Positions 19,574 through 62,942 of a stretch of 64,000 nucleotides of DNA are shown one piece after another. The notes beneath the pieces are model-generated. The model had not been told where the DNA came from, did not search any database, and saw only the letters and a list, made by a program, of their open reading frames with translations. Each line of letters begins with the position of its first letter. Positions within the stretch are counted from its first letter, which is position 1. Source of the DNA: a virus (lineage: Duplodnaviria > Heunggongvirae > Uroviricota > Caudoviricetes); IMG/VR virus record IMGVR_UViG_3300027808_000017, positions 1 through 64,000 of that record; one strand, written 5' to 3'. The position numbers were made by a program, and so were the translations under genes.

Positions 19574-21490
19574 ATGAGCAAAGTAATCGGTATCGACCTA
19601 GGTACCACAAATTCATGTGTAGCCGTCATTGAAAACGGAATCCCCAAAGTAATTGAAAACAGCGAAGGTGCTAGAACTACACCCTCAATCGTTGCCTATG
19701 CCAACGATGAGATTCTTGTAGGTGCTAGTGCTAAACGTCAAGCAGTTACTAATCCAAAAAATACAATCTACGCCGCAAAGCGACTGATTGGTCGTAAATT
19801 CAAAGAAGAGGCTGTACAAAAAGATATTAACTTGATGCCGTATACCATCGTTGAAAATGACAATGGTGATGCATGGGTTCAGTTAAACGATAATAAGTTA
19901 GCACCCCCGCAGATTTCAGCGGAAGTCTTACGCAAGATGAAAAAGACTGCGGAAGATTATCTAGGTCATGAAGTTACACAAGCAGTTATTACTGTTCCCG
20001 CTTATTTTAATGATAGTCAAAGACAAGCGACAAAAGATGCAGGTAAAATTGCAGGCTTGGAAGTATTGCGTATCATTAACGAACCCACAGCAGCCGCATT
20101 AGCGTATGGTGTAGATAAACAGGAAAAGCGTGACCGTAAAGTTGCTGTATATGACTTAGGTGGTGGTACCTTTGACGTATCAATCATTGAGATTGCCAAC
20201 GTTGATGGTGACACACAAGTTGAAGTATTGTCAACAAATGGCGATACATTCTTGGGTGGTGAAGACTTTGACCAACGCATCATGGACTACTTGATTAGTG
20301 AATTCAAAAAGGATTCAGGAGTCGATTTAAGTAAAGACATGCTAGCACTGCAACGACTAAAAGAAGCCGCAGAAAAGGCTAAGATTGAGTTGTCAAGTAC
20401 AGCACAAACAGATGTTAACTTACCATATGTAACAGCAGATGCTAGCGGTCCTAAGCACATGAACATTAAGTTGTCACGTAGCAAATTGGAACAGTTAGTT
20501 GATGAATTGATTCAACGCAGTATTCAACCATGTAAGACAGCTATGGCTGATGCTAAGATTTCAATAAGTGATATTGACGAGGTTATTCTTGTTGGTGGTA
20601 TGACACGTATGCCTAAAGTACAAGAAATGGTTGAATCATTTTTTGGTAAAGCACCTCGCAAGGACGTTAACCCGGATGAGGCAGTTGCCGCTGGTGCCGC
20701 TATTCAGGGTGATGTATTAGGTGGTGGACGCACAGATGTTTTATTGCTTGATGTTACTCCATTGAGTCTTGGCATTGAAACAATGGGTGGTGTGATGAGT
20801 AAGTTGATTCAAAAGAATACAACTATTCCTACTAAACAAAGTCAAACATTCAGTACAGCAGAAAACAATCAACAAGCGGTTACTATTAAAGTATTCCAAG
20901 GTGAACGTGAAATTGCACAATACAACAAGTTGCTAGGTGATTTTAACTTAGATGGAATTCCACCAGCACCAAAAGGTATGCCTCAAATCGAAGTTACATT
21001 TGATATTGATGCTAACGGCATTATGCACATCGGTGCAAAGGACAAAGGTACTGGTAAGGAAAACAAAATCACTATTAAATCAAACAGTGGTTTGAGTGAA
21101 TCAGAGATTCAAGAAATGGTTAAAGATGCTGAATTGAATGCTGAATCTGACAAGAAAGCCCGTGAATTAATTGAGGCACGTAATGGTGCAGAATCAACAT
21201 TGTATGGATTCAAACAAGACTTTAATAAGTACAGTGACAAAGTTACTGAAGAAGAAAAAACTAAAGCCGAAGAAGCAATCAAAGCAGTTGAAGAAGCAAT
21301 CAACGGGGATGACCCAACCGTTATCCAAGATAGTATTCCTAAATTATATGAGGCAATTGGTCCAATCACTAAAGCTAAAAGTGATGAAGAAGCCAAGAAA
21401 AAGGCTGAAGAGGCAACTAAGACTACAGAAGCACCAAAAGATGACAATGTAGTTGATGCAGAAGTTAAAGAGTCACCGGAGACTGTTTAA
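19574..21490 (+). CDS. dnaK: chaperone DnaK (Hsp70)
   Basis: [18 protein letters not shown]..., full-length Hsp70 (638 aa); RBS AAAGGAG. Confidence 0.9.
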
Positions 21491-27559: not shown

Positions 27560-27588
27560 TTGACAATAAATCACTTTGGGTATACAAT
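27560..27588 (+). promoter_or_regulatory. sigma70-type early promoter (family member)
   Basis: TTGACA-17(ATAAATCACTTTGGGTA)-TACAAT. Confidence 0.6.
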
Positions 27589-28044: not shown

Positions 28045-28073
28045 TTGACAATAAATGGCTTTGGGTATATAAT
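28045..28073 (+). promoter_or_regulatory. sigma70-type early promoter (family member)
   Basis: TTGACA-17(ATAAATGGCTTTGGGTA)-TATAAT; UTR AGAATCTTAAACAGTAAAGAAAAGGA. Confidence 0.65.
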
Positions 28074-28562: not shown

Positions 28563-28591
28563 TTGACGATAAATCGTTTTGGGTATATAAT
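28563..28591 (+). promoter_or_regulatory. sigma70-type early promoter (family member)
   Basis: TTGACG-17(ATAAATCGTTTTGGGTA)-TATAAT. Confidence 0.6.
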
Positions 28592-32856: not shown

Positions 32857-32860
32857 TATT

Positions 32861-33214
32861 ATGGAAATATTACTTCTTATCGTTGGTCTTGTAATTGGTT
32901 ACCTAATAGGTGAGTCCTATTGTTTGTTCAAAATGCGTCATATTATTCTGGATGTAGCTTCAAAAGAAGGCATTTATCTTGATGATGAAATAGAGTCTAA
33001 AGGCAAGGTAATAGAAGTACACAAGTTAAGAATTCAAAATATCAATGATATGTTGTATCTTTATACTGATGCAGAAGATTTCATATGTCAAGCCAAAACG
33101 TTAGAAGAATTAGCCACACTATCACAACAATATAAAAACATCAACTACGCCGCAGTGATTCATGATAACAAAGTGTTCACTTTCATCAACGGCAATGTAA
33201 CTGAAAAAGAATGA
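32861..33214 (+). CDS. membrane-anchored hypothetical protein
   Basis: N-terminal TM MEILLLIVGLVIGYLIG. Confidence 0.45.
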   Translation: MEILLLIVGLVIGYLIGESYCLFKMRHIILDVASKEGIYLDDEIESKGKVIEVHKLRIQNINDMLYLYTDAEDFICQAKTLEELATLSQQYKNINYAAVIHDNKVFTFINGNVTEKE

Positions 33215-33750
33215 AAATCAAAATTAACAAGTGGCCCAAAGGGGCAGGAGATCAAAAAGTTGATATCCAAATTGATTCATGGGATACATGGAACATGGAT
33301 GGTACCTTGGCTAAAATCATCTACCCAATGTTGATTCAACTAAAAGCTACTAAGCACGGTATACCTAACGAATTTGTAAATGATGTTGGTGGTGAAGATT
33401 ATGTTGACCAAGAAAGTTTTGACTTTTATAAAGAAACTCACAAAGAATCCTGGGATATTGCAGCAAAGCAGTGGGATGAAACACTTGATAAAATGATCTG
33501 GTCGTTTGGTCAAATTGCTTATGAAGATTATGATGATAAGTATCATCACGGCAAAGCTGAGTATGATTGGGTTGATTCTGATAAGACATATCCAAACCCA
33601 GTTACTGGTAAATTAGAACCCACATATCGAATGGTTGACAAGAACCCAGGTGAACATTGGTATGATCATGTAGGTCATCAACTGCATGAACAGCGTATAC
33701 AAGAAGGTTTTGAATTGTTCGGTAAGTATTTTCGTAATCTTTGGGACTAA
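33211..33750 (+). CDS. hypothetical protein
   Basis: 179 aa. Confidence 0.45.
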   Translation: MKIKINKWPKGAGDQKVDIQIDSWDTWNMDGTLAKIIYPMLIQLKATKHGIPNEFVNDVGGEDYVDQESFDFYKETHKESWDIAAKQWDETLDKMIWSFGQIAYEDYDDKYHHGKAEYDWVDSDKTYPNPVTGKLEPTYRMVDKNPGEHWYDHVGHQLHEQRIQEGFELFGKYFRNLWD

Positions 33751-33751
33751 C

Positions 33752-34009
33752 ATGAACGCATTTGACCATATGGTAACTATTCTATCCGCTGAGGCGTATA
33801 AAGATAATGATTTTACACCTATTAGTAAAGATGAGTATGCTAAATTTTGCAAAGAGTATATTTTTGAAAAACTAAAAGAGATACGATTTGGTACAGCCTT
33901 TCAAAAAAGATTTGGCGTAAGAGATAGAGTACTAAGTATATTTAGCGAACAGAAAGATGCCATGGATCATATTGAGAGATATTATATAGGGGAAAGTAAT
34001 GAGTGGTGA
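33752..34009 (+). CDS. hypothetical protein
   Basis: internal Met MNAFDHM of track ORF 33686-34009. Confidence 0.4.
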   Translation: MNAFDHMVTILSAEAYKDNDFTPISKDEYAKFCKEYIFEKLKEIRFGTAFQKRFGVRDRVLSIFSEQKDAMDHIERYYIGESNEW

Positions 34010-34799
34010 AATAGAAAATATACGCAAGAGAGGAATTGTAGTAGAAACCGCAGTTGATGCTAATAGGATTTTAGGTTTAATTAATAAATTAAAACCAATA
34101 CAAACTCAATATGAATTAATGCGTGTAGGTCACGACAGAGAAGGGGGCTATTTAATTCCAGATGACATTGTTGGGATAGCAACTTGTTTTTCTGCTTGTT
34201 CCTCTATAGATAGTTCAGTTGCATTTGAACAAGATTTGCATGAATCATTTGGTATTAATTCGCATCTAGTAAATTTTTCTATGGAAGAAGTACCTGGATA
34301 TATTACACCATTGTCATTCATTCCAAAATTTTTAGGTCCAACTAATAATAATACGGATATAACATTAGATTCTTGGGTCAAAGAAACAGTAGAATACGAA
34401 TATTGTGGAGTGCATCAATTAATGCTTAAATTAGATTGTGAAGGTAAGGAATATGGTGCTATTCTTTCCTCCTCTGAGGAAATTCTTAAACAATTTAGAA
34501 TTATAGTCTTAAAATTAACTGATGTTGATAAATGGGGGCATCCGTCTTTCTTTAAAATTGTCGAAGATTTTACCAACAAACTATTACAACATTTTAATGT
34601 AGTACATATTCATCCAGACAATAAAGGAATCATCAAAAATATTAATGGGATAGATTTACCAGAAACAATAGAGATTACCTTTCTTTCTAAAAAAAGATGT
34701 AAGGTATTGGGATATGTAAATTCATTGCCAGATGAATTAGATAAACCATGCAATCCGGATTTAGTTGATATAGCGTTACCTGATATTTGGTATAAGTAA
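33999..34799 (+). CDS. hypothetical protein, tandem paralog A
   Basis: shares GGYL(I/V)PDD, ESFGINSHL, DSWVK, KWGHPSFF, LLQHFxVVHxHP, LPDIWYK with next ORF. Confidence 0.5.
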   Translation: MSGEIENIRKRGIVVETAVDANRILGLINKLKPIQTQYELMRVGHDREGGYLIPDDIVGIATCFSACSSIDSSVAFEQDLHESFGINSHLVNFSMEEVPGYITPLSFIPKFLGPTNNNTDITLDSWVKETVEYEYCGVHQLMLKLDCEGKEYGAILSSSEEILKQFRIIVLKLTDVDKWGHPSFFKIVEDFTNKLLQHFNVVHIHPDNKGIIKNINGIDLPETIEITFLSKKRCKVLGYVNSLPDELDKPCNPDLVDIALPDIWYK

Positions 34800-34822
34800 A
34801 ATATAAATTATAAAGGAAAATA

Positions 34823-35587
34823 ATGCCAAACGAAACTATTGTTGAACTTGCTGTAAGTGCGGATAGGCTTGTCAATTTGATTAGTAAATTAAAGCCAGTA
34901 AAAACACAAACTGAACTAATGAGAGTTGGATCTACCCAAGATGGTGGATATTTAGTTCCGGATGATGTCGGGGGGATAATTGCATGTTTCTCTCCTGGAG
35001 TAGAACATACATCAACATTTGAATTAGATTTACTTGAATCTTTTGGAATCAATTCTCATTTAGCAGATTATTCAGTAGACGGTCCTCCTGCATATTTTAA
35101 CCCATTATCGTTTACTAAAAAATTCTTGGGCGCAATAAACAATGATGTATATATGACAATGGATTCATGGGTAAAGAGTACACCTGAATACGAATCTATT
35201 GGTGATTTTCTACTTCAAATGGATATTGAATTTGGTGAGTACAGTACATTGCTTGCAACTTCGGATGAGATTCTTAAAAGATTTAGAATTATAGTTATTG
35301 AAGTACATCACATTGACAAATGGGGACACCCCTCTTTCTTTAACATAGCAGAATCATTCTTTGATAAACTGTTACAACATTTTCATGTAGTACATGCACA
35401 TCCTAATAATTATGGCACTGTTATTAATGTTAATGGAGTAGAGTTACCGCAAACTATTGAATTTACTTTACTTGCAAAAGACAGATGTAATATATCAGGG
35501 TTTGTTGATACTTTTCCAGATGAATTAGATAGTCCGTGCTGCCCTGATAAAAATGAACTAGTGTTACCTGATATTTGGTATAAATGA
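34823..35587 (+). CDS. hypothetical protein, tandem paralog B
   Basis: collinear homolog of 33999-34799. Confidence 0.5.
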   Translation: MPNETIVELAVSADRLVNLISKLKPVKTQTELMRVGSTQDGGYLVPDDVGGIIACFSPGVEHTSTFELDLLESFGINSHLADYSVDGPPAYFNPLSFTKKFLGAINNDVYMTMDSWVKSTPEYESIGDFLLQMDIEFGEYSTLLATSDEILKRFRIIVIEVHHIDKWGHPSFFNIAESFFDKLLQHFHVVHAHPNNYGTVINVNGVELPQTIEFTLLAKDRCNISGFVDTFPDELDSPCCPDKNELVLPDIWYK

Positions 35588-36126
35588 AACAAAAATTTAT
35601 AGATTACTTCATGGATGTAGCTGAACGCACTAGTCAGTTAAGCCATGCTATACGATTGCAAGTTGGTGCTATCATTGTTAAAGATGATAGGATCATCAGC
35701 ATCGGATACAACGGTATGCCTAGTGGTTGGGACAACAATTGTGAAGATAAAGAATACATGAGTAGTGATGCCGGGGGTTGGTTAGATCCTAATGAGATTT
35801 ATGAACGATGGCCGTTTGAAGAAAAACCCAGAATTCAATGGTTTGGGGATGACTCTATAACTGTTACCAATAGATATAAACTGAAAACGAAACAAGAGGT
35901 GTTACATGCTGAAACAAATGCGATTGCAAAACTGGCTAAGTCTAACGAATCTGGTGTGGGTGCTACTTTGTTTATTACCCATTCTCCATGTTTGGACTGT
36001 GCCAAACTTATATACCAAAGTGGTATTAACAACGTTCTATACCGTAACACTTATCGTAGCGATGATGGTATAGATTTCTTAAACAAGAGTGGAGTCAATG
36101 TCACCCAACACACAGTACAAAACTGA
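35584..36126 (+). CDS. dCMP deaminase
   Basis: zinc-binding HAETNAI ... PCLDCAKLI (H-A-E / PCxxC). Confidence 0.8.
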   Translation: MKQKFIDYFMDVAERTSQLSHAIRLQVGAIIVKDDRIISIGYNGMPSGWDNNCEDKEYMSSDAGGWLDPNEIYERWPFEEKPRIQWFGDDSITVTNRYKLKTKQEVLHAETNAIAKLAKSNESGVGATLFITHSPCLDCAKLIYQSGINNVLYRNTYRSDDGIDFLNKSGVNVTQHTVQN

Positions 36127-36298
36127 AATAAACATTAAGTTTGGTCAACTAGCACCAATCATGCACTGGTGCCAAACTCAATGTAATTGTGATTGGGGTT
36201 ACAAAATGTTAGACAATGCAGGATATCATCCAGGTAAATATGAATTTTACTTTGAAGATGAGAAAGATTACGTTAACTTTATACTTTGGAAAAAATGA
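36089..36298 (+). CDS. hypothetical small Cys-containing protein
   Basis: track ORF; true start may be Met 36161 (MHWCQTQCNCDWGY). Confidence 0.35.
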   Translation: MESMSPNTQYKTEINIKFGQLAPIMHWCQTQCNCDWGYKMLDNAGYHPGKYEFYFEDEKDYVNFILWKK

Positions 36299-36546
36299 AG
36301 TACTTTACTTTTTACCGTGAATCAAATAACTTTGATGACATATTAAACGATATCAATCTTAAAAAATTGATTACTACTAAACTGCGTTGGGATAATTACC
36401 TAATGATTGGCATCAGCAAATATAAAAAAGATGCGGAAAAGATATTCAGCTATGTCACACTTAAGTATGGTGATGAGATGCGTAACCGATTGACTAAAGA
36501 CTATAGCCCTGTACCAAATGTGGATTACATCCCTATTAGAAAATAG
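36286..36546 (+). CDS. hypothetical protein
   Basis: 86 aa. Confidence 0.4.
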   Translation: MEKMKYFTFYRESNNFDDILNDINLKKLITTKLRWDNYLMIGISKYKKDAEKIFSYVTLKYGDEMRNRLTKDYSPVPNVDYIPIRK

Positions 36547-36714
36547 TCATTTGGTTACTTTGTGCAAAAAATGATCCTATACTATATAGTACTTGAACTA
36601 GAATAAACCCAGCATTCAATACACCAAACAACAAATACATAGCCGTTAATGCCATGATTAAGCTATGTAATGCTGGATTCATCAATAATTTTTTTATTTT
36701 TTGGCAAATATTTT

Positions 36715-37014
36715 TCATCGTTTACTTTGTTGTACCTTTTCTGTTGTAGTATTAGAGCAACTAACCGCATTGCTACGAAATGTTTTATATATTGTTGCCT
36801 TATTACCCTCTCTACAATGGTACTCGCATATTTGCATACCGTTATCTGTAACCGAGGTATAGGCTAAATCACATTGACTATTTATTAGTTTTGTTTTTTC
36901 TATCTTATGAGTTGATTCTGAATTTATATTTATATATAAATTCTTCGGGACAAGCGGTGCTACCACAGTAACTACGGCAGCAACACCCAATAAGAAATTA
37001 TTGAATTTTATCAC
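36715..37014 (-). CDS. secreted Cys-rich small protein
   Basis: signal peptide MIKFNNFLLGVAAVVTVVAPLV; 6 Cys. Confidence 0.45.
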   Translation of the reverse strand: MIKFNNFLLGVAAVVTVVAPLVPKNLYININSESTHKIEKTKLINSQCDLAYTSVTDNGMQICEYHCREGNKATIYKTFRSNAVSCSNTTTEKVQQSKR

Positions 37015-37126
37015 TACGTATAGTCCTTTCTTGTTTTATTTTTTAGTGCAACTATACTAGAATATTTACCCCACGTGGACAGGCAATATCTTACTAGATA
37101 TTGGTAAATTCAATTAACTGAGTATA

Positions 37127-37468
37127 TTAAATGTTATTAGGATTGCTTCCGGCATTGCCGGAACCTAATACACATGCAGTAGTATCGGTGTACTCTACTA
37201 CAGTCCAAGTTTTCTTTTCTTTGTTTACTAGTAAAGCAAGATGACTGTTGGTGTTTGACTTACCAACCCACACAGGTGTTTCTCCAAATTCTTTGGCAAA
37301 ATGCGGTATCACAAAGTCTGCATTACTACATTTTAATGGCTTTTGTAATTGGATAATTTCTTGTGCGTGGCCAGTTAAACAAACCAACAATGACAGTGCT
37401 AATAATTTTTTCATTGTATACGTCCCTAAGGCAACGGACTGCTGGAGGGTCCTGATGAATGTATACAT
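37127..37468 (-). CDS. secreted small protein (paralog 1)
   Basis: signal peptide MKKLLALSLLVCLTGHAQ; shares EFGxxxxWVG...TWTVVEY...AC with next ORF. Confidence 0.5.
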   Translation of the reverse strand: MYTFIRTLQQSVALGTYTMKKLLALSLLVCLTGHAQEIIQLQKPLKCSNADFVIPHFAKEFGETPVWVGKSNTNSHLALLVNKEKKTWTVVEYTDTTACVLGSGNAGSNPNNI

Positions 37469-37731
37469 GCAACACTAGAACTATACTGAACTACAGTAAA
37501 TGTTCCTGTAACACGATTACGCATCACTGCAATAGTTGTGGGGGTTTTAGTTAAATTGTCTTGTCCCACCCATATTTGTTCTTGACCAAATTCTCTAGCC
37601 AAGAATTCTAACATAGCTTGTGCCGGGGCACAACTTAATTGCACTTCAGCTTGGAACATGCGATTTGGTACTTGGGCGCTGGCTATAGAGCTAATTAGGC
37701 AGAATAGGAACGCCGCTATTGATTTTTGCAT
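37426..37731 (-). CDS. secreted small protein (paralog 2)
   Basis: signal peptide MQKSIAAFLFCLISSIASAQV. Confidence 0.5.
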   Translation of the reverse strand: MQKSIAAFLFCLISSIASAQVPNRMFQAEVQLSCAPAQAMLEFLAREFGQEQIWVGQDNLTKTPTTIAVMRNRVTGTFTVVQYSSSVACIHSSGPSSSPLP

Positions 37732-37781
37732 AATGGATCCTTAAAATAGTATTGAATAGTATTTATCTTCGCTGGTATTAG

Positions 37782-38564
37782 TTAATTTAACAAATCTGGT
37801 TGTTCTTTTAGGATTCTATGATACAGTGGTTGAAAACTAAACCAACCTGCAAATGCTGATCCCACGATTGAATACGATTGTTCACATGATTCCGTAGAAA
37901 TACTTTTTGGGCTATGGGTGACACCCGCAGATTCTGTCAATAACTGTACCTGACAACTTCTTTCCATGGTAATAAACCACCATGCGGCTGCGTCAACAGT
38001 ATCGCCCACAGTCAGCAAACCGTGATTTTGTAGGATTACCGCTTTGTTTGCCCCCAGTGCATTGGCTATTCTTTTACCCTCATCAAGTTCAACTGCCACA
38101 CCACCAAAGTCTTGATATACTGAATGATCATTGTAAAAAGCACAAACATCTTGTGTCAGCATGTCAAGAGGTTTACCAAATGTGCTCCATGCCCTACCGT
38201 ACATACTATGTGAATGTGCCGCTGCCATAGCATCAGGTCGGGCGTGATGAACACTGCTGTGTATTGCAAAACCTGCTGTGTTAACAGGATGATTACCTTC
38301 AATGACATTTCCTGAATGGTCTACTCTGAGCAAATTAGACACACACACCTGACTAAAATGCACTCCAAACGGATTAATCCAAAACGTGTCTAAAAATTCT
38401 GGATCCCGAGCCGTTATATGCCCCGCGACACCTTCATCAAATCCAAATTTTGAAAAAAGACGAAACGCCGCAGCCAGGCGCTGTTTGCAATGAAGTCGGT
38501 GGTCTTGGGGATTTGAAAACACCGGCGGGGTTGGTAAATCTAATGCCATTTTACGTTGATCCAT
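37782..38564 (-). CDS. class II aldolase/adducin-domain protein
   Basis: GHITARDP..., HSH, LQNHGLLTVG motifs typical of class II aldolase/adducin N-terminal domain; G+C-richer. Confidence 0.55.
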   Translation of the reverse strand: MDQRKMALDLPTPPVFSNPQDHRLHCKQRLAAAFRLFSKFGFDEGVAGHITARDPEFLDTFWINPFGVHFSQVCVSNLLRVDHSGNVIEGNHPVNTAGFAIHSSVHHARPDAMAAAHSHSMYGRAWSTFGKPLDMLTQDVCAFYNDHSVYQDFGGVAVELDEGKRIANALGANKAVILQNHGLLTVGDTVDAAAWWFITMERSCQVQLLTESAGVTHSPKSISTESCEQSYSIVGSAFAGWFSFQPLYHRILKEQPDLLN

Positions 38565-38576
38565 AATTATTTTCTT

Positions 38577-39095
38577 TTATTGTGATGGGTTTGAGAGGCA
38601 GCTTCTCTGTACTTCGTTTAACATCATATAACGTTCACGCTGTCCGTGATGAATATTATAAATCAAATCGGCAATATTCCGAGTGATACGCATGAATTCT
38701 GGATTACAATGATGTGGGAATGTTTGTACAAATGTTTTCTTTGTATAGTCCCAGTCATTATCCCGCATGATAAATGCATAATGTGTGAGTTCGTGTCCTA
38801 GGCCCCAATCTATCATCTCATAACCATAATGTTTCAGTGTTTCGGGAGAGATGATAATTTGCATATCATAGTCAGAGTTATCTAGTATAGGAAATTGAAA
38901 CATCATTCTTACTCCAGGGGGCAGCGTTTCAACGGTGATTGGTGGCATGGGTAAATCTACAGGAGCGCCCACACGCTGTTTGATAAATTTCCACTCTAGT
39001 TCAATCACTGGCCAATCTAAATCCGATAATATCGGTTGGACGTTGGCTATGGAGCTAGTTAGGCAGAATAGGAACGCCATTGCTATGTATTTCAT
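38577..39095 (-). CDS. secreted HExxH zinc metallopeptidase-like protein
   Basis: signal peptide MKYIAMAFLFCLTSSIANVQP; GLGHELTHYAF. Confidence 0.5.
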   Translation of the reverse strand: MKYIAMAFLFCLTSSIANVQPILSDLDWPVIELEWKFIKQRVGAPVDLPMPPITVETLPPGVRMMFQFPILDNSDYDMQIIISPETLKHYGYEMIDWGLGHELTHYAFIMRDNDWDYTKKTFVQTFPHHCNPEFMRITRNIADLIYNIHHGQRERYMMLNEVQRSCLSNPSQ

Positions 39096-39269
39096 AGTGG
39101 CTCCTTTTAATATAGTATTTATTTAAATTTGCTTGGCAAAGTGTCCTTAGGACCAGTTTTCTTTGCTTCATCCATCATTTTTTCTGTTGCTGGGCTAGTT
39201 CTGTGGGGTACACTGTGATGTTTTTGTGATGGGGGATATTTCGGGGGACTGTGTTTAAACCAACTCATG

Positions 39270-39521
39270 TTATTCTCCTTCTTTTTTTTCGTTTGATTTT
39301 GTTGTTCCGTATTGTATTTGTCGTTGCTTTGCTATTACCATTCTCATACATTGAGTCCTACGTTCATAACTCTTAATCTTATCACAAAATGTAGCACTAC
39401 CTGCATAACTTGCTAGACAGTAGTTTTTGTCATCCTGTACATTCATTTTGGAACAATCATTCATGTCACTGTTGACTGACACTGACACAAACAATAATGA
39501 TAATATGATAATATTTCGCAT
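39270..39521 (-). CDS. secreted Cys-rich small protein
   Basis: start at MRNIIILSLLFVSVSVNS (signal peptide); track start further upstream falls in terminator hairpin. Confidence 0.45.
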   Translation of the reverse strand: MRNIIILSLLFVSVSVNSDMNDCSKMNVQDDKNYCLASYAGSATFCDKIKSYERRTQCMRMVIAKQRQIQYGTTKSNEKKEGE

Positions 39522-39547
39522 ATAGAAAAGCCCCTTACGGGGCGATA
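39522..39547 (-). terminator. rho-independent terminator (minus strand)
   Basis: minus-strand reading: CGCCCCG-TAA-GGGGCT then TTTTCT. Confidence 0.55.
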
Positions 39548-39763
39548 TCATTCTTGCATTTTTCTCTGAATATAACTGTCAATTTTTGACTTTGCATCAT
39601 CTAACGAATTTGCATATATTTTAAAAATACCTTTATTTTTATTAATAGTTACATCGTATGGTATAATACCGTTAAAATTAAATCCTTCAGGAACTTCTAC
39701 TTCTACTTCAAATTGTCTCAGATTTTTAATTCTCTCTAACAATTTTGTCACTAATTCAGCCAT
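39548..39763 (-). CDS. hypothetical protein
   Basis: 71 aa. Confidence 0.45.
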   Translation of the reverse strand: MAELVTKLLERIKNLRQFEVEVEVPEGFNFNGIIPYDVTINKNKGIFKIYANSLDDAKSKIDSYIQRKMQE

Positions 39764-39963
39764 AAATTTCTCCTATATTTTATAGTGTACTATATCTCTT
39801 AGTTATTTATTCTAAATATTTACATGAGTAAATCTTTATTAGACGAACTACGTGAACACTTAGAGGGTATTGAAAACTATTGGCTAGCATTAGCTATAAT
39901 TATGTTATTCTCTTTATTTGCATCAGTATTAACATTATTTGGTGTGTACTTTTATACTCGTCT

Positions 39964-40299
39964 TTAATGTTTTCTAGGATGGTTTATAAACCATCTCTCT
40001 AATTCTTCCAAATTTAAATCACCATCAAAGTGTTTCTTAAATCCCTTATAGAATCTTATCTTTTCTGGATCTCCGTTGAATCGTTCCATGATTTGATCTT
40101 CTTCTAACTGCTCCCGTTGAAACTCTGGTAATATTTCTTTATAGCTGTAATATCCAAATAAAATAAAACAAGCAAGCACTGATGTTATGAAAATGAAGGC
40201 ATATATATAGTCGTGGAAAATAATTAAAATTATAGGTACTAAAAAGACACCAAGAATTGATAGCAAAATTAACGATAGTGTTTTAGTTACTGGATTCAT
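39964..40299 (-). CDS. 2-TM membrane protein
   Basis: TM helices LSLILLSILGVFLVPIILIIF and FIFITSVLACFILFGYY. Confidence 0.45.
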   Translation of the reverse strand: MNPVTKTLSLILLSILGVFLVPIILIIFHDYIYAFIFITSVLACFILFGYYSYKEILPEFQREQLEEDQIMERFNGDPEKIRFYKGFKKHFDGDLNLEELERWFINHPRKH

Positions 40300-41122
40300 T
40301 TTCTGTTTTCTTTCTCTCTTTCTCTGCTAAAAATTCTTCATATTCTTTTAATTTTTTCTGTCGTTCAAACCATTCCTGTTTCCTCAATTCGGCTAGGCGA
40401 GTTTGATATGGTTTATTTTTTATGTCATATCCCCATCTTGTTTGAGCATCATGTGCTATCCACATCATTAACCCACCTATGACTAACATTACAATAATAA
40501 CACCCACACCAAACATAAACTCAAATTGATACTTAGCCATTCTTTGTTTGCGTCTTAATGCTTGTGCCGCCTCTGCTCGCATTTGTTTTGCAACAAGAAT
40601 TTTTTGTTCAGTACCCATTTCTTTAGTCATTAAGTCTACTTCGGTGTACAATGCACCCAGTTCAGGTGGTGATTGGTAGATCATGAGTTCACGCAATTCT
40701 TTACCCATTTGTTCTAATTGCTTTTTCATTAGAACACGTTTTAATGCACGTTTAGCTAAACTATCACCACCACTATATACTTCTGTCTTACTGCGCTTTT
40801 CTTCTTCTTCAAGTACTGCTAGACATTTGAAATAGTTATCGTAGTAAGCGCCCAGACTGTCTCCAATTTCTGTATAGATATTGGTGCTTTCCTCACTACG
40901 TTTGTTTAGTTCTTTTACGCGGGTTTTTTCTTCTGCTAACTGCTTAACCGCGGCAGGTGGAACAGGTTTTCCCTCATACTTTTTATGAAACTGGTCATCT
41001 AAATCTTTTAGTACGCCCTTTACATCACCTGTCGCACTCTTAATGTCTTTATAAAGTTGGCACCCCTTCTTAACGGCTTGTACTGCGCCGTTTGCTAAGG
41101 CAAAGAGGGTAAACGGATCCAT
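40283..41122 (-). CDS. coiled-coil protein with C-proximal TM segment
   Basis: 279 aa; TM FMFGVGVIIVMLVIGGLMMWI. Confidence 0.5.
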   Translation of the reverse strand: MDPFTLFALANGAVQAVKKGCQLYKDIKSATGDVKGVLKDLDDQFHKKYEGKPVPPAAVKQLAEEKTRVKELNKRSEESTNIYTEIGDSLGAYYDNYFKCLAVLEEEEKRSKTEVYSGGDSLAKRALKRVLMKKQLEQMGKELRELMIYQSPPELGALYTEVDLMTKEMGTEQKILVAKQMRAEAAQALRRKQRMAKYQFEFMFGVGVIIVMLVIGGLMMWIAHDAQTRWGYDIKNKPYQTRLAELRKQEWFERQKKLKEYEEFLAEKERKKTENESSN

Positions 41123-41159
41123 AGCGGTCCTTTAGGTGTTAAGGCATAACCGAATCAAA

Positions 41160-41711
41160 TTAGATAGGTAACCAAAGCCAAAGTGCTTGGCTCATTAGTA
41201 TCATTGCTACACCACCTACATATAAACTTGCTGTATATAGACGATTGTTAACTGATAAGATACTTGCTGATAAAAGAACAATAGCAATTTGAAATAAGCT
41301 ACCTGCAAATGTATACCATGGACTACGTAGTTTAGCCACTGCACGTTCATCTTCTAATTTACGTGCTTTAGCCATTAACTCTTTTTTACCTTCACCAGAT
41401 TCTGGATCAGATTCGTAACGGTCAATTTTAGCCTGTAGTCGTGCAACTTTTTCCTTGTCACCTCTAGCTAAGGCATCATCACGTGCCATTTCTGCTAATG
41501 TACCCTTGATACTTTTAGCTTGATAGAAGCTCCAAGTATTGTTAGCATCAATAGTATTGTTCAATACTTTACCACTATTACTACCACCTATATAGGTATT
41601 GATAGCAAGTAGTGCCGCAAATACGACAATAACCCATCCTGCTTTATCCTTGATTAATGCCTCACGCTCTGAACGAGATAGAGGTTTTGCTTCTTGTTTT
41701 ACTTCTGCCAT
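41160..41711 (-). CDS. membrane protein
   Basis: 183 aa; TM near N-term and C-term; RBS AAGGGAG. Confidence 0.5.
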   Translation of the reverse strand: MAEVKQEAKPLSRSEREALIKDKAGWVIVVFAALLAINTYIGGSNSGKVLNNTIDANNTWSFYQAKSIKGTLAEMARDDALARGDKEKVARLQAKIDRYESDPESGEGKKELMAKARKLEDERAVAKLRSPWYTFAGSLFQIAIVLLSASILSVNNRLYTASLYVGGVAMILMSQALWLWLPI

Positions 41712-41772
41712 TTTAGTCTCCCTTATGTTATAATTATTATATTAGTATTTATTGTTTTTTTGCCCAAAATCT

Positions 41773-41802
41773 TTGACAATCATGTGCAAAGTATGATACT
41801 AT
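41773..41802 (+). promoter_or_regulatory. sigma70-type promoter with extended -10
   Basis: TTGACA, ~18-nt spacer, TGaTACTAT; ATG 41809 only ~7 nt downstream. Confidence 0.4.
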
Positions 41803-41808
41803 TATATT

Positions 41809-42336
41809 ATGAAATTAAACATGCCACATTTATACCTAGACATGGACGGTGTCCAAGCAGACTTATTCACCGAAGTAGCACATAGATGCGGAGTCAAACA
41901 TTGGGATGATATACCAGATCATGATGAAGTTTTTAACAAACTAAGTTTACAAGGCCCAGAGGTTGCCTATGAATTATTTCGTGTATTGAAACCATTATCC
42001 GGTGGACAAGTTATTGTCAACTGGCTACATGATAGCAAAATACCGTTCACTGTATTAAGTGCCCCATTACGCAATGAAGGTGATGCAAGTGTTAGGGCAA
42101 AACGTGATTGGCTAGATGAGTTTAATCCCGGAACCAGTCAAAATGCTATCTTTACTAAACGCAAATTCAAATATGCAATATCAGATGGACAACCTAATGT
42201 ACTAGTAGATGACTTTAACTATTATCTAAACAGTTGGGCAGAAGCCGGTGGTATTGCAGTCAAGCATAGTGATGCAACTACTGAACATACCATAATGCAG
42301 TTGAACAAAATCTATAAGCCTTATCTAAATAACTAA
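41809..42336 (+). CDS. 5'(3')-deoxyribonucleotidase-like HAD phosphatase
   Basis: HAD motif I LYLDMDGVQADLF near N-terminus (cf. DMDGVLAD of dNT-type nucleotidases). Confidence 0.55.
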   Translation: MKLNMPHLYLDMDGVQADLFTEVAHRCGVKHWDDIPDHDEVFNKLSLQGPEVAYELFRVLKPLSGGQVIVNWLHDSKIPFTVLSAPLRNEGDASVRAKRDWLDEFNPGTSQNAIFTKRKFKYAISDGQPNVLVDDFNYYLNSWAEAGGIAVKHSDATTEHTIMQLNKIYKPYLNN

Positions 42337-50702: not shown

Positions 50703-52751
50703 ATGGCAATTTTAGGACAAGCAAACATATTAGTAGGAGTAGAAAATCAAGCTACTGGTAGTGATAGCATCTACACCGCATTCAATAAAGTAGTTGACAA
50801 CTTTGACACGTTATTCACCTATTCCAGCCCGTTCAATACATTTAATAGTGGTAACGGGATCACAGCAACCCCATTTAGTAGCAACGGATCAGTATTCTTT
50901 GAAAACACAGGAGTAACTAGTTTAATTGCCGGTACTGGAATCACTATATCATCTCAAACAGGAGAAATTGTTATTTCTTCTGCCGGTGGGGAGGGAATGT
51001 CAGGTGTCACTAGTGTTGGAATATCAAGTATTTCGTTAGATGTAAGTGATTCTCCTATCGTCAGTTCAGGATTAATTAGAGTAGAATTACCTACAATTGA
51101 AACAGGCCTTGGATTTGAACCGGGTGACTATATTACACCCGCACTTACCGTAGATGCATACGGTCGTATTACTAGTATTTCTAATACCTCTACGTCAGGT
51201 ACAGTAACCAGCATAGCACTAGATACAGTTGGTGATGGCATTGGCATAACCGGAGGTCCGATAACAGATAATGGAACGATTGTTATTACTAACACAGGCG
51301 TTACCAGAATAAATGCAGGAAATGGAATTGAATTAAGTGGTAGTACCGGAAACGTGACTATCAATTCTACACTTAGAGGTGTTGGTGTTGTTAGTAGAGT
51401 AGATGTTGATAGTACTACACTGACAGTACTGAACAGTCCAATAACATCATCAGGAACAATTACAGTTGATATTCCAGATGACATCTCGTTAGCTGGAAAT
51501 CTTATTGCAAATACTATCACTAGCAACTCCACAGCAACAATTACAGGTAATATTACTGTGGGTAATATTACCTCTACTGGTACAATTACTTCATTAGGTG
51601 GAAATATTTTATTAGGAGCTAATCTAGTAATTACTACCTTAAGTGGCACGGGCGGACCATCTAATATTCTTACTATTGGGTTTACTACTCAACCAAGAAT
51701 ACCGTTTGTACCAGGTGCTATCATTACCATTACCGGAACAACACCAACTACTTACAATGGATCTTACACAGTAATCACAGGTACTACAAGTGCAGTAACT
51801 GTGACTAGTTCAGTATCAACAGCAGTAGTTACAAAAGGTAGAATCATTGGTGGAGGTGATATAATTAGTAATGGATTTGTTACGGTATCTGCTAACATTA
51901 CTAGTGCAAACGTGATAGCTACTACAGCATTGCAGGCACCCAAAGTTAATATTACAGGTAATGTATCATCCTCTGCATGGGGTACAAGTGGAATAGGTTT
52001 AGTTGTGTCAGCAAATACATATACTGATGCCTCTACTGCAGGTTCAGGCACAGTCGCAAGTGCTTCAATCAACGTGATAAATATACCAACTATTACAGCA
52101 AGTAATCTTGCAGTAACCGTCACTAAAGCATCGTCATTATATATTGCAGGTGCACCTGCTGCCGGTGCTAATATTACATTAACCAATTCATATGCATTGC
52201 AAGTGGCTGCTGGGCCTGTACAGATTGATACATCTACTGCCGCAACATCAGCCACGACCGGCGCACTAAGAGTTGCCGGTGGTGTAGGTATCAGTGGTGC
52301 TTTATATGCAGGAGGCGGAATAGCTAGTGCAAACACTACATCCGGTTCTCTAGTGGTTACCGGTGGACTAGGTGTTAGTGGTGATACATATCACGGTGGT
52401 AGTGTCCTTATTTCAGGAACAGGCGGGCTAGGGTACGGAACTGGATCTGGTGGAACAGTTACGCAAGCTACAAGCCGAACAACCGGTGTAACTATTAATA
52501 AAACAAACGGTGCTATTGTTCTTATTTCCGGAGCAGGTTCTACCGGGTGGCAATCATTCACTGTGACTAATAGTACAGTGGTAGCTACTGATGTAGTTCA
52601 TGTTTCTCAAAAATCAGGTACGGATCTTTATCAAATATTTGTTACTGCTATAGCAGCCGGTAGCTTTCGAATAACATATGCAACTACTGCAGGCTCAACT
52701 ACTGAGCAACCGGTATTTAATTTCGCTGTCGTAAAAGCAGTAACAGCATAA
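50703..52751 (+). CDS. tail-fibre-like structural protein (Thr/Gly/Ser/Ile-rich repeats)
   Basis: 682 aa; repeated NTGVT(S/R)(L/I)xAGxGIxxSxxTGxVxI units. Confidence 0.5.
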   Translation: MAILGQANILVGVENQATGSDSIYTAFNKVVDNFDTLFTYSSPFNTFNSGNGITATPFSSNGSVFFENTGVTSLIAGTGITISSQTGEIVISSAGGEGMSGVTSVGISSISLDVSDSPIVSSGLIRVELPTIETGLGFEPGDYITPALTVDAYGRITSISNTSTSGTVTSIALDTVGDGIGITGGPITDNGTIVITNTGVTRINAGNGIELSGSTGNVTINSTLRGVGVVSRVDVDSTTLTVLNSPITSSGTITVDIPDDISLAGNLIANTITSNSTATITGNITVGNITSTGTITSLGGNILLGANLVITTLSGTGGPSNILTIGFTTQPRIPFVPGAIITITGTTPTTYNGSYTVITGTTSAVTVTSSVSTAVVTKGRIIGGGDIISNGFVTVSANITSANVIATTALQAPKVNITGNVSSSAWGTSGIGLVVSANTYTDASTAGSGTVASASINVINIPTITASNLAVTVTKASSLYIAGAPAAGANITLTNSYALQVAAGPVQIDTSTAATSATTGALRVAGGVGISGALYAGGGIASANTTSGSLVVTGGLGVSGDTYHGGSVLISGTGGLGYGTGSGGTVTQATSRTTGVTINKTNGAIVLISGAGSTGWQSFTVTNSTVVATDVVHVSQKSGTDLYQIFVTAIAAGSFRITYATTAGSTTEQPVFNFAVVKAVTA

Positions 52752-54194: not shown

Positions 54195-54223
54195 ATTATA
54201 TACCCAAATCCATTTACTGTCAA
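54195..54223 (-). promoter_or_regulatory. sigma70-type early promoter (family member, minus strand)
   Basis: revcomp TTGACAGTAAATGGATTTGGGTA TATAAT + UTR AGAATCTTAAACAG. Confidence 0.65.
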
Positions 54224-54380: not shown

Positions 54381-54409
54381 AATAAAAGTATTATATACCC
54401 GAATCCATT
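54381..54409 (-). promoter_or_regulatory. sigma70-type early promoter (family member, minus strand)
   Basis: revcomp TTGACA-ATAAATGGATTCGGGTA-TATAAT. Confidence 0.65.
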
Positions 54410-54573
54410 TATTGTCAAATTTTGGCTAATTTCTTTTTAGTGTGTCAGAGTTCTAGGCCTATATCAGAATCGGTCCTAGAGCACCTGACACACAAATGAA
54501 TACTCAAGTATTCATTTTTATTAAGAAGTTATATATAAAAAAACCCTACAAGGTTAATACTTTACTTTTAGTT

Positions 54574-56659: not shown

Positions 56660-56688
56660 ATTATATACCCGAATTGATTTATTGTCAA
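56660..56688 (-). promoter_or_regulatory. sigma70-type early promoter (family member, minus strand)
   Basis: revcomp TTGACAATAAATCAATTCGGGTA TATAAT. Confidence 0.65.
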
Positions 56689-57235: not shown

Positions 57236-57264
57236 ATTATATACCCAAAGCCATTTATTGTCAA
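57236..57264 (-). promoter_or_regulatory. sigma70-type early promoter (family member, minus strand)
   Basis: promoter+UTR (to ATG 57203) nearly identical over ~60 nt to the + strand copy at 7440-7503. Confidence 0.7.
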
Positions 57265-62927: not shown

Positions 62928-62942
62928 ATGTTTAAGATGCTA

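Follow-up and report, generated by a model that had tools for sequence, protein, structure and literature searches.

Why should two otherwise unrelated genes of one phage begin with almost the same DNA? The question is raised by positions 36715–39547 of the window, a 64,000-nt stretch of a Caudoviricetes virus (IMG/VR record IMGVR_UViG_3300027808_000017). The initial annotation regarded this locus as a G+C-rich island of secreted proteins, acquired horizontally as a moron, in which a signal-peptide segment of about 33 bp had been duplicated by recent domain shuffling. The phage is large, T4-like, and of freshwater origin, and the locus lies in a hyperplastic region, i.e., one of accessory genes. 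The T4-like identity was recognized from homologues of gp45, gp44/62, RegA, gp43, UvsX, and gp41 located near the small gene in relatives; T4 core genes that would confirm late transcription of the gp55/gp33 type were not found in the window itself. The gene content (a class II aldolase, two paralogues, an HExxH protein, and Cys-rich proteins) was as annotated, with some starts corrected. The features are as follows.

36715–37014, minus strand: backbone gene, 99 aa, four cysteines, N-terminal hydrophobic anchor, GTG start
37127–39123, minus strand: mobile four-gene module (the island proper), delimited by related contigs
37127–37414, minus strand: paralogue B, small two-cysteine protein, 95 aa, predicted to be exported, with signal peptide MKKLLALSLLVCLTGHAQ unlike that of A
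37426–37731, minus strand: paralogue A, small two-cysteine protein, 101 aa, predicted to be exported
37673–37714, minus strand: copy 2 of the 42-nt block, within the signal-peptide codons of paralogue A, GGCGTTCCTATTCTGCCTAATTAGCTCTATAGCCAGCGCCCA
37756–37766, minus strand: late-promoter-like motif ATAAATACTAT upstream of paralogue A, exact match
37782–38564, minus strand: class II aldolase/adducin-fold enzyme of the NovR-like subfamily, 260 aa (PF00596, NF004855)
38577–39095, minus strand: HExxH protein, 172 aa, zincin (minigluzincin/SprT-like) fold, predicted to be exported
39037–39078, minus strand: copy 1 of the 42-nt block, within the signal-peptide codons of the HExxH gene, GGCGTTCCTATTCTGCCTAACTAGCTCCATAGCCAACGTCCA
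39112–39122, minus strand: late-promoter-like motif ATAAATACTAT upstream of the HExxH gene, exact match
39119–39268, minus strand: backbone gene, 49 aa, basic and hydrophilic, without export signal as judged by hydropathy
39270–39521, minus strand: backbone gene, 83 aa, four cysteines, predicted to be exported
39530–39543, minus strand: hairpin GCCCCGTAAGGGGC resembling an intrinsic terminator, with TTTTCT after it, between the 71-aa and 83-aa genes

Within the module the order is thus late-promoter motif, HExxH gene, aldolase gene, second late-promoter motif, and paralogues A and B. The true start of paralogue B is the ATG at 37414, as called on JGI contig L001, giving 95 aa rather than 113 aa. 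The 93-aa open reading frame from 39551 is an over-extension, because the terminator hairpin covers its upstream ATG; the orthologue of this 83-aa gene in the related contig L012 is 81 aa long and starts MRNIIILS.

The near identity of the two gene starts was confirmed, and proved larger than described, 77–87 nt instead of 33 nt. A repeat search aligned 37672–37748 with 39036–39112 (77 nt, 78% identity), and self-BLAST of the window gave 87 nt at 80% identity (E 9e-14). The copies are 1364 nt apart in one genome, and their 42-nt cores (37673–37714 and 39037–39078) are identical at 38 of 42 positions. The likeness runs upstream of both ATGs as far as the identical ATAAATACTAT at 37756–37766 and 39112–39122, and so spans the late-promoter motif, the ribosome-binding site, and the signal peptide. 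Among 11 shared degenerate amino acids, 10 use the same codon, mostly a rare one (P = 4e-4). Since identical, mostly rare codons are accompanied by likeness in non-coding DNA upstream, the two copies are related by DNA descent and not by convergence. The "duplicated signal-peptide segment" is therefore a portable 5' cassette of about 85 nt, carrying a putative late promoter, a Shine-Dalgarno site, and a signal peptide.

The history of this cassette was traced among related phages. In L156 the whole module was collinear (91.5% identity over 1997 nt) between unrelated flanks, and L036 and L236 carry the HExxH gene with A and B at 86–91% identity without the aldolase gene, which is thus a single-gene indel between HExxH and A (L036 versus L156). 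L214 carries the HExxH gene alone at 98.4%, its flanks being 73–75% identical to the window. Phages of other backbones carry the module, or single genes of it, at 86–98% identity. The backbone relatives (76–87% nucleotide identity) show the gene order 49-aa gene, (cytochrome c), small gene, and 99-aa Cys-rich gene, and L012–L014, L017, and L020 lack the HExxH gene, the aldolase gene, and paralogue A at this site. The gene at 36715–37014 is 88–91% identical and at the same position in L012, L017, and L020, and the 49-aa gene is 89% identical and at the same position in L012. By these comparisons, the module is a 2-kb unit that moves between phage lineages, and the flanking Cys-rich genes and the 49-aa gene are part of the conserved backbone outside it. 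A horizontal island is supported for 37127–39123 only, and by this comparative evidence, not by composition (see below).

The breakpoints of homology were located at the cassette. The homology of the window to L002–L011 (94%) ends at 37673, which is the last base of the block and where the signal peptide stops. In the window, the HExxH gene has a chimeric 5' region: its promoter half matches the region upstream of the cytochrome c gene of L012, and from the ribosome-binding site onward it matches the HExxH gene of L002. Cytochrome c orthologues share 92% nucleotide identity in the mature part, but their signal peptides are unrelated (56%), one of them being the cassette. The HExxH gene with the block is already present in L002–L011, L036, L156, L214, and family members down to 59% identity, and hundreds of contigs have the block on the small gene. 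The homology breaks fall at the shared cassette, where whole genes and protein domains have apparently been swapped, and the transfer seen is from phage to phage. Domain shuffling was thus borne out, by the same cassette on cytochrome c and by the breakpoint at 37673, but it is neither recent nor internal to this genome, both combinations occurring in other phages. The mosaic was read from metagenomic contigs, some of which may be chimeric assemblies, and the same junctions recur in many independent samples.

The aldolase-fold protein matched PF00596 (3e-49, 167.7 bits, cut-off 22.2) and, over its full length, NF004855 (417.5 bits, cut-off 255), and is 75–77% identical to proteins of Cupriavidus and Ralstonia (Burkholderiales), from which it differs in being phage-encoded and 13–24 residues shorter. 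The closest solved relatives are NovR 9ryg (2e-72) and 4xxf. As in these NovR/CloR-like enzymes, the metal-site motifs HxH and NHG are present, AAHSHS and QNHGL aligning with HLHT and KNHGL of 9ryg; the aligned HxH and the later histidine we take to be metal ligands, from what is established for FucA-type enzymes. The protein has no signal peptide, its maximum hydropathy over 10 residues being 0.74 as against 2.5–3.05 in A, B, and the HExxH protein, and is predicted to be cytoplasmic. The NF004855 subfamily carries no equivalog-level name, bacterial gene neighbourhoods were uninformative on the substrate, and, with aldolases, decarboxylases, and oxygenases all among its members, the family does not point to one reaction. 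The gene was captured long ago from bacteria, its closest named relatives being in Burkholderiales, and, as judged by homology searches, it is apparently the only module gene of cellular ancestry: the searches run gave no named cellular homologues of the HExxH protein or the small proteins.

Export is predicted for the other three products. Paralogues A and B and the HExxH protein all have the features of Sec-type signals, i.e., a charged n-region, a hydrophobic h-region of at least eight residues, and small residues at −3 and −1. By a rule-of-thumb reading, made without a trained predictor, the cleavage sites would be MQKSIAAFLFCLISSIASA|Q in A, MKKLLALSLLVCLTGHA|Q in B, and MKYIAMAFLFCLTSSIA|N or ANV|Q in the HExxH protein. 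In 17 sequences of the HExxH family, the motif GHExTHY (G100-H101-E102-x-T104-H105-Y106) is invariant, and so are H128, H129, and H150, the candidate third zinc ligands. The protein was assigned to the zincin fold; it gave no Pfam match at cut-off (SprT-like PF10263, E 0.0057, 16.9 bits, below the cut-off of 25.6) and no NCBIfam or PHROG match. With minimal zincins of the minigluzincin, SprT, and Wss1 types (selecase 4qhf, proabylysin 4jiu, and Spartan 6mdx) it is 10–17% identical, and it differs from them by the predicted export signal, two conserved cysteines, and an invariant HHC with a further histidine where gluzincins have glutamate as the third ligand.

A and B (33% identical, E 2e-15) are paralogous small proteins with two conserved cysteines, predicted to be periplasmic, and belong to a family of 651 members, all unnamed. 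A is 87% identical to its L036 orthologue; B is 87% identical to the L036 copy but only 50–54% identical to the resident small gene of the backbone relatives. No Pfam, NCBIfam, or PADLOC-relevant match was found for either, only PHROG 25396 of unknown function. In the structural model of B, the core (pLDDT about 90) is predicted to adopt a beta-alpha-beta4 fold. The proposed lysozyme inhibitor of the PliC/MliC type found no support, as there was no Pfam hit and the fold comparison gave no match to the eight-stranded beta-barrel of that family.

The composition of the locus was then considered as a possible mark of foreign origin. In 300-nt windows, the G+C content is modestly raised over about 37150–39250 (0.40–0.45 against a window mean of 0.371), as had been noticed, but there is no such rise at either end of the claimed interval (about 0.31–0.33 in windows covering 36715–37014, and 0.34 at 39270–39551). 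The z-scores of G+C for island genes are only 0.3–1.45, other genes of the window being richer (0.476, 0.494, and 0.50), and the excess is confined to codon positions 1 and 2. The expected difference in codon usage was not seen: GC3 of the aldolase gene (0.318) equals the window mean (z 0.00), that of paralogue A is 0.324, and the island genes range from z 0.00 to 1.07, so the codon usage of the island is not foreign. A bacterial homologue of the aldolase in a genome of 41% G+C has the same composition (0.446, GC3 0.304), and in the higher-G+C phages L003 and L004 the aldolase gene is a low-GC3 outlier (0.30 versus 0.52–0.59 for the backbone). The rise in G+C thus reflects amino-acid content.

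Transcription of the module apparently runs along the minus strand, starting from two late-promoter motifs of the T4 type. With up to one mismatch, ATAAATACTAT occurs 14 times in the window against 4.6 expected, and, of the 27 ATAAATA copies in the window, 14 fall in the 45 nt sense-upstream of a gene start, a zone of 4.4% of the sequence space. From their sequence and placement, the ATAAATACTAT motifs presumably act as late promoters. Sigma-70 promoter-like sites are not in excess in the island (26 found, 22 expected). The hairpin at 39530–39543, conserved in L012, is the only strong terminator-like site on the minus strand of 36300–41900; no such site follows the module past 37127, and no terminator stem-loop lies upstream of either cassette copy in the window. 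In relatives L019, L025, and L031, a hairpin lies upstream of the ribosome-binding site.

Within the cassette, the 42-nt block shows a conservation of its own. It heads only three families, small proteins, cytochrome c, and the HExxH protein (51 IMG/VR and >118 metagenome stretches), and was absent from 185,579 species genomes. Its home is the small-protein family, and genes for cytochrome c and the HExxH protein have received it by grafting. Few parts of a gene normally evolve as fast as the signal peptide; here, synonymous codon identity is 0.82–0.89 in the block against 0.41–0.54 in the mature parts, and the contrast holds in the same genes even where the mature parts share <35% of amino acids (0.41, saturated). 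The conservation is about 2 bits per position, third codon positions included, with sharp edges; outside them, variation is free in the first five to six codons, at the Shine-Dalgarno site, and in the promoter. Fixed rare codons are GCG (50/51), TGC (51/51), ATA (50/51), and AGC (47/51), and the base preceding the block is G in 65 of 67 variants, supplied by ATG, GTG, GCG, TTG, CTG, or TCG; the two exceptions carry A (ATA). The collection is in part biased, as the signal peptide itself, though degenerately back-translated, was among the three patterns searched for. Such frozen synonymous sites need a further constraint beyond recombination, and, being unusual for a signal peptide, point to one not recognised hitherto.

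These observations altogether are best explained by cassette-mediated modular shuffling, to which we give a probability of about 0.6; its recombination mechanism, late promoters, export, and additional nucleotide-level function are what we infer. As block copies stand in the same orientation ahead of neighbouring genes, homologous recombination between them, whether inside a single genome or between phages in a mixed infection, would add, remove, or exchange whole genes, and would fuse the promoter and export signal of one gene in frame to the mature domain of another. An additional nucleotide-level function would keep the block invariant. More tentatively, and with odds clearly against it, the block may have a double use in freshwater T4-like phages that has not been described before: it would encode the hydrophobic core and cleavage site of the signal peptide and would at the same time be selected as a cis-element, perhaps in RNA, as a hairpin or binding site co-regulating late exported proteins, or perhaps in DNA, as a site used by a phage function in recombination or homing. 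If so, it would be a standard "connector" by which any mature domain is placed in frame behind a late promoter and an export signal.

It is also conceivable, though we doubt it, that the block serves primarily as a functional nucleic-acid element lying in signal-peptide codons under purifying selection. Such an element could act as a hairpin in the mRNA, as a site bound by a phage protein or a small RNA, or as the DNA that a recombination or homing function targets; the three exported families would then share it as one regulon, and recombination would be a by-product of its conservation. The frozen silent sites, the sharp edges, the fixed rare codons, and the G kept before the block whichever codon supplies it all fit this proposal. 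A possible hairpin (GGCGUU/AACGCC and CUAU/AUAG, dG −11.4 kcal/mol, z about −2) places the most variable positions in loops, and 25 one-sided changes retain pairing through G-U. However, compensatory double changes numbered 0, the pairing of 96% of cells is no better than in shuffled controls, and no Rfam family matched. In the loops, several positions equal the stems in conservation, so that a hairpin alone does not account for the pattern, and the ascertainment bias noted above also weighs against this proposal.

The account given initially, a recent signal-peptide duplication within this genome, with the whole of 36715–39547 as a G+C-rich moron acquired from a host, is very unlikely. Two copies 80% identical in one genome, a bacterial-type aldolase, and the somewhat raised G+C would suit it, but it is already contradicted on timing, extent, and composition: both gene–cassette combinations pre-exist in other phages, the outer genes are backbone, and GC3 is at the window mean. 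The lack of a terminator after the module, of named cellular homologues of the HExxH and small proteins in the searches, and of the block in 185,579 species genomes speaks against it as well. Convergent selection for one optimal Sec signal peptide suiting export in the host, with neither shared DNA ancestry nor a role in recombination, is scarcely credible. The peptide AFLFCL(T/I)SSIA(N/S/G)A does have normal n-, h-, and c-regions, with A-x-A as its cleavage motif, and it recurs on three unrelated mature proteins; but cytochrome c and HExxH orthologues of related phages use quite different signal peptides, so that no single peptide is required, and the identical rare codons, the likeness in non-coding DNA, and the coincidence of breakpoints with the cassette are all against it.

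Under cassette-mediated shuffling, recombination would yield not only new gene orders but also new exported proteins ready for expression, a possible route by which proteins destined for the periplasm of the host are put together and passed among phages. Such proteins would include a minimal zincin, small disulfide proteins, and cytochrome c, together with a D-Ala-D-Ala carboxypeptidase in relatives. The block serves as a 42-nt probe for retrieving this accessory region from freshwater viromes. The locus also cautions against inferring horizontal origin from G+C alone, since the evidence for mobility is comparative and the sole gene of apparent bacterial ancestry has fully phage-like codon usage.

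Other known systems can also be compared. Morons, described in lambdoid phages, are independent transcription units inserted between genes. The module resembles them in being accessory, absent from the closest relatives, provided with its own promoter-like motifs, and non-essential, with products that probably modify the host. It does not fit a moron as so defined: no terminator was found after it and its codon usage is not distinct. In addition, it passes between lytic T4-like phages, and it is itself mosaic, composed of three units that move independently of each other. In conotoxin superfamilies, a conserved signal sequence precedes a hypervariable mature part. The genes headed by the block are similar in that the signal-peptide region is far more conserved than the mature part, silent sites included, but different in that their setting is viral and prokaryotic, and that the block is common to non-homologous mature proteins and coincides with recombination junctions.

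The precedent is offered by the PeSLs, at which modular shuffling is the accepted account of accessory-gene renewal in T4-like phages. In phages of the T4 type, these promoter-early stem-loops lie between genes and join a terminator stem-loop to an early sigma-70 promoter (Arbiol et al. 2010, PMC2839356; Comeau et al. 2014, PMC4122927). Elsewhere in the window, a classical PeSL-like family of 14 TTGACA-N17-TATAAT cassettes was observed. Like PeSLs, the cassette is a short, conserved, direct repeat in hyperplastic regions of T4-like genomes, lies at insertion, deletion, and replacement junctions between close relatives, and offers short homology for recombination between otherwise unrelated genes. 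Unlike PeSLs, it carries the late-type ATAAATACTAT instead of TTGACA-N17-TATAAT, has no terminator stem-loop, and has a coding core frozen at synonymous sites; neither late promoters nor signal peptides are mentioned in the 2010 paper (PMC2839356). The cassette also differs from the intergenic PeSLs in reaching about 60 nt into coding sequence, so that a crossover would make an in-frame fusion of an export signal with a new mature domain. What is new here is the logic of PeSLs inside coding sequence: a unit of promoter, ribosome-binding site, and signal peptide is used again for unrelated proteins and marks the points of crossover.

The presence and absence of genes were mapped over 47 loci and combined with nucleotide comparisons between the window and a set of metagenomic and viral contigs (L numbers). 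The genes and shared segments concerned are as follows.

37127..37414, minus strand: paralogue B, a small two-cysteine protein predicted to be exported (95 aa, start corrected to 37414)
37426..37731, minus strand: paralogue A, a small two-cysteine protein predicted to be exported
37782..38564, minus strand: aldolase gene, 260 aa
38577..39095, minus strand: HExxH gene, a predicted exported zincin-fold protein of 172 aa
39521, corrected start: Cys-rich protein of 83 aa, previously taken as 93 aa
37672-37748 and 39036-39112: the two copies of a repeat
37756-37766 and 39112-39122: identical ATAAATACTAT motif starting each repeat copy, upstream of both genes
37673-37714 and 39037-39078: 42-nt block, coding core of the shared 5' cassette

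Backbone relatives (L012-L014, L017, and L020), which are 76-87% identical to the window at the nucleotide level outside the island, carry the order 71-aa, Cys-rich 81-aa, 49-aa, (cytochrome c), one small protein, Cys-rich 99-aa, TM protein, and the dCMP deaminase block; at the island site of these contigs HExxH, aldolase, and paralogue A were absent, and the small protein showed just 50-54% identity to paralogue B. On L156, HExxH-aldolase-A-B is collinear with window 37127-39123 (91.5% over 1997 nt) and adjoins an unrelated glycosyltransferase-like gene, while L036 and L236 carry HExxH-A-B without the aldolase at 86-91.5% identity to the window. The order on L002-L011 is (cytochrome c)-HExxH-53aa-aldolase-small, with the aldolase 94% and HExxH 91% identical to the window and the backbones having no more than some hundreds of bases in common, at about 73%. 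On L214 (cytochrome c-HExxH-small) HExxH is 98.4% identical to the window vs 73-75% for the flanks. By these contrasts in gene content and identity among the relatives, the mobile island is limited to 37127-39123 and is itself mosaic, its three units (HExxH, aldolase, and A plus B) each having a history of its own; the outer genes at 36715-37014 and 39119-39521 belong to the backbone. The initial annotation had proposed horizontal acquisition of the whole interval 36715-39547, and mobility could be upheld for this narrower module but not for the outer genes, nor is it shown by G+C content; derivation of the island as a whole from a host was not borne out.

A second HExxH homologue (177 aa, 42-50% identical) was found on L012 (4421-4954, minus strand) beside a DUF4337 gene, at another site, on the other strand, and with another signal peptide, which gives the HExxH gene two or more insertion sites within the phage group. 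Other accessory genes close to the island in relatives (L002 272-1786 and 6394-7092; L012 2299-2514) code for ClpS, heme oxygenase, ferredoxin-dependent bilin reductase, an exported D-Ala-D-Ala carboxypeptidase (Peptidase_S11), and an eIF-1a/IF1-like protein. A 279-aa coiled-coil/TM protein (window 40283-41122) adjoins the island and is tandemly duplicated on L002 (7616-8440 and 8464-9270) and L007, with identities of 75% and 58% to the window copy.

The rise in G+C on which the island had been proposed does exist, at 0.40-0.45 restricted to about 37150-39250, but is weak: the excess per gene amounts to z = 0.3-1.45, several genes elsewhere in the window being richer, and it comes from the first and second codon positions. 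The aldolase has a GC3 of 0.318 (z = 0.00), paralogue A one of 0.324. In G+C-richer phage backbones the aldolase gene (94% nucleotide identity) is a low-GC3 outlier, at 0.30 vs 0.52-0.59. A bacterial homologue from a genome of 41% G+C has the same profile (G+C 0.446, GC3 0.304), and the Cupriavidus gene has a GC3 of 0.87. By these values, the rise reflects the amino-acid content of a conserved enzyme and gives no evidence for a recent G+C-rich donor.

The gene inventory of the initial annotation was correct except for the starts of paralogue B and the Cys-rich gene; a terminator hairpin (39543-39530) overlies the upstream ATG of the latter, and its L012 orthologue begins at the same Met as the 83-aa form. 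The duplicated signal-peptide segment was likewise real and longer than first stated, 77 nt at 78% identity or, by self-BLAST of the window, 87 nt at 80% (E 9e-14), spanning from ATAAATACTAT through the ribosome-binding site to codon 20. The same codon is used for 10 of the 11 degenerate amino acids common to both copies, and most of the matched codons are rare in the genome (GCG 8%, CTA 16%, AGC 13%, GCC 16%). Since such a match of rare codons has P = 4e-4 if codons are chosen independently, the two copies are related by DNA descent.

The breaks of homology map to this shared 5' cassette, consisting of late-promoter-like motif, Shine-Dalgarno site, and signal peptide. Between the window and L002-L011, the match at 94% takes in the aldolase together with the promoter of gene A and breaks off at 37673, where the signal-peptide block has its last base. 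In the window the 5' part of the HExxH gene is chimeric: the stretch reaching from the 49-aa gene as far as TATTAAAAGGA corresponds to L012 sequence upstream of cytochrome c, and from GCCACTATG on the match is to the L002 HExxH gene. On L002 and L009 the cassette heads the cytochrome c gene, and orthologous cytochrome c genes on L003/L004, L008, and L012 carry three other signal peptides; between L002 and L008 the mature part is 92% and the signal peptide 56% identical. The cassette occurs in up to three directly oriented copies within 2 kb, as on L002. Unequal or inter-genomic crossover at cassette copies would generate the deletions, insertions, and in-frame signal swaps seen, and recombination at the cassette is to us the probable explanation of the mosaic, with a probability of about 0.6. 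Shuffling of signal peptides, as proposed in the initial annotation, holds in that homology breaks at the cassette, but not as a recent event.

The cytochrome c genes of L003 (4174-4509) and L004 (1649-1984) have 100% identical signal peptides and mosaic mature parts, and the 3' half of the L004 gene matches the L002/L008 type; recombination therefore takes place within the gene too, besides at the cassette.

Exact-pattern scans detected the 42-nt block in 51 IMG/VR stretches and in more than 118 metagenome stretches, the latter a lower bound; it was not found in 185,579 bacterial and archaeal species (one genome each), which gave no pointer to a host or donor. Among the matches listed, the genes behind the block belong by translation to three families only, small two-cysteine proteins, cytochrome c, and HExxH proteins, the first forming the great majority with some members less than 35% identical in the mature part. 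Over a non-redundant set of 28 small-protein genes, the information content stood at about 2 bits for almost all positions, third codon positions included, between the G preceding GCG and the closing CCCA, and fell to 0.2-0.8 bits outside the block on both sides. The base before the block was G in 65 of 67 variants, by way of ATG, GTG, GCG, TTG, CTG, or TCG, the two exceptions being ATA. For pairs with mature parts less than 35% alike, the same codon was used for the same amino acid in 41% of cases in the mature part vs 82% in the block, divergent members without this signal peptide being under-sampled; the figure for the block stayed at 0.82-0.89 across divergence, and close pairs gave 0.97 in the block vs 0.88 in the mature part. 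One of the three peptide patterns by which genes were collected was the signal peptide itself, but codon choice was not thereby selected for, because this pattern was back-translated degenerately.

Such a frozen block is predicted neither by amino-acid selection on the signal peptide nor by recombination alone. The RNA of the block is predicted to fold into a hairpin (GGCGUU/AACGCC, CUAU/AUAG, GC/GC; -11.4 kcal/mol, z about -2), which would be compatible with the pattern of conservation: its loops contain the most variable positions, and pairing is kept as G-U in 25 one-sided changes. Covariation analysis of these very conserved sequences gave 0 compensatory pairs and pairing no better than in shuffles, and the Rfam search of 36300-41900 gave no match at E up to 1. 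Selection on the block as an element at the nucleotide level is possible, though less likely than not.

A T4 middle promoter within the block (MotA box TGCTTtA; TTCTGCCTAA or TTCTGCTTAA), considered by eye, was set aside, the distance to the nearest -10-like TATAGC being about 7 nt against a spacing of about 12 nt in T4 middle promoters.

Paralogues A and B (33% identity, E 2e-15) belong to a family of 651 members, none named, and matched in PHROG, NCBIfam, and Pfam scans only PHROG 25396 (unknown function). The model shows one helix on a five-stranded sheet with a conserved Cys pair on the first and last strands; it gave no meaningful match in PDB and, in the viral structure set, uncharacterised phage proteins only. 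A PliC/MliC-type lysozyme inhibitor, as initially suggested for the two proteins, was supported by neither profile nor fold. The two flanking proteins have four Cys apiece after a hydrophobic N-terminus, and the 99-, 83-, 71-, and 49-aa proteins matched nothing in the same scans. The HExxH motif of the 172-aa protein is invariant, and longer members of its family (322-507 aa) showed no extra domains by Pfam. The 260-aa protein is a class II aldolase/adducin-fold enzyme (PF00596, 3e-49; NF004855, 417 bits) without a signal peptide, retaining the HxH and NHG motifs, with NovR and a fungal aldolase as closest solved relatives and 75-77% identity to proteins of Cupriavidus, Ralstonia, and uncultured freshwater bacteria. 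Its reaction could be of more than one kind, since the subfamily takes in both decarboxylases and oxygenases (NovR); the neighbourhoods of its bacterial homologues (Cupriavidus and a metagenomic contig of 41% G+C) were mutually unrelated and gave no substrate hint. In IMG/VR, the aldolase search detected one locus, L044, at 75% identity.

The window as a whole (G+C 37.1%) consists of short, tightly packed genes with Shine-Dalgarno sites and codes for bacterial-type DnaK, ATP-dependent DNA ligase, dCMP deaminase, and 5'-3' exonuclease. No near-identity match for 36000-40500 was found among 50,697 deposited phage records; a JGI metagenome contig with the exact aldolase protein agrees with window 32858-38628 at 99.9% identity. 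Among contigs that show synteny with the window or bear the small-protein gene, sizes reach 174-361 kb, and homologues of gp45, gp44/62, RegA, gp43, UvsX, and gp41 adjoin the small-protein gene on them, which makes the window part of the accessory genome of a large T4-like phage from fresh water. Other genes observed in the window are the following.

19574-21490, plus strand: full-length bacterial-type DnaK/Hsp70 homologue (PHROG 22485), sharing 65-70% identity with DnaK sequences from gammaproteobacterial records and 55-59% with those of uncultured 'huge' phages of 480-735 kb
33999-34799 and 34823-35587, plus strand: tandem paralogues of 266 and 254 aa (68% nucleotide identity over 749 nt) without Pfam, NCBIfam, or PHROG match; single copy there in backbone relatives such as L012
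46123-48663, plus strand: 846-aa protein with N-terminal GNAT acetyltransferase domain and ParB-N domain
50703-52751, plus strand: 682-aa protein of odd composition (GC2 0.56, GC3 0.21) without Pfam match

The T4 late promoter is TATAAATA, and the motif ATAAATA(CT) resembles it. Of the 27 copies of ATAAATA in the window, 14 are no more than 45 nt sense-upstream of a gene start; such positions amount to 4.4% of sequence space. This enrichment, together with the lack of enrichment of sigma-70 promoter-like sites in the island, makes late expression of the module likely. Window-wide, the late-promoter-like ATAAATACT often stands just 11-14 nt before ATG (e.g., 4269, 14631, 23460, 45561, and 50680, plus strand; 41742, minus strand), with little or no space for a Shine-Dalgarno site in between; the leaders of some late genes may therefore be very short.

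Outside the island the window has 14 near-perfect early promoter cassettes. These are near-identical, strong sigma-70 cassettes (copies of 55-80 nt, mutual identity 80-98%), in which TTGACAATAAATnnnTTTGGGTATATAAT is followed by a conserved leader and Shine-Dalgarno site, and they precede small open reading frames.

6792-6820, 7148-7176, 7440-7468, 7881-7909, 27560-27588, 28045-28073, 28563-28591, plus strand: sigma-70 cassettes
54195-54223, 54390-54418, 56660-56688, 57236-57264, 57790-57818, 62648-62676, 62942-62970, minus strand: sigma-70 cassettes

They look like classical early regulatory cassettes of the promoter-early stem-loop (PeSL) type. Membership of the signal-peptide cassette in this abundant repeat family was excluded by alignment.

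Several features are ordinary and of already known kinds: the region is hyperplastic, its accessory genes have no known function, and the auxiliary enzyme is bacterial in ancestry. The nearest known system to the signal-peptide cassette is the PeSL, a short promoter-early/stem-loop cassette by which genes are inserted, deleted, and replaced in hyperplastic regions of T4-type genomes (PMC2839356, PMC4122927). In a limited literature search, a cassette such as the present one was not described in these two papers, and the 2010 text lacks the terms late promoter and signal peptide. The cassette behaves in the same way as PeSLs, but is different from them in having neither an early promoter nor a terminator stem-loop, the two defining PeSL features, and in reaching into the open reading frame, where a crossover would fuse the signal peptide in frame to another protein. 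In addition, unlike PeSLs, its coding core is frozen at silent sites, and the interest lies in this block of proposed dual use.
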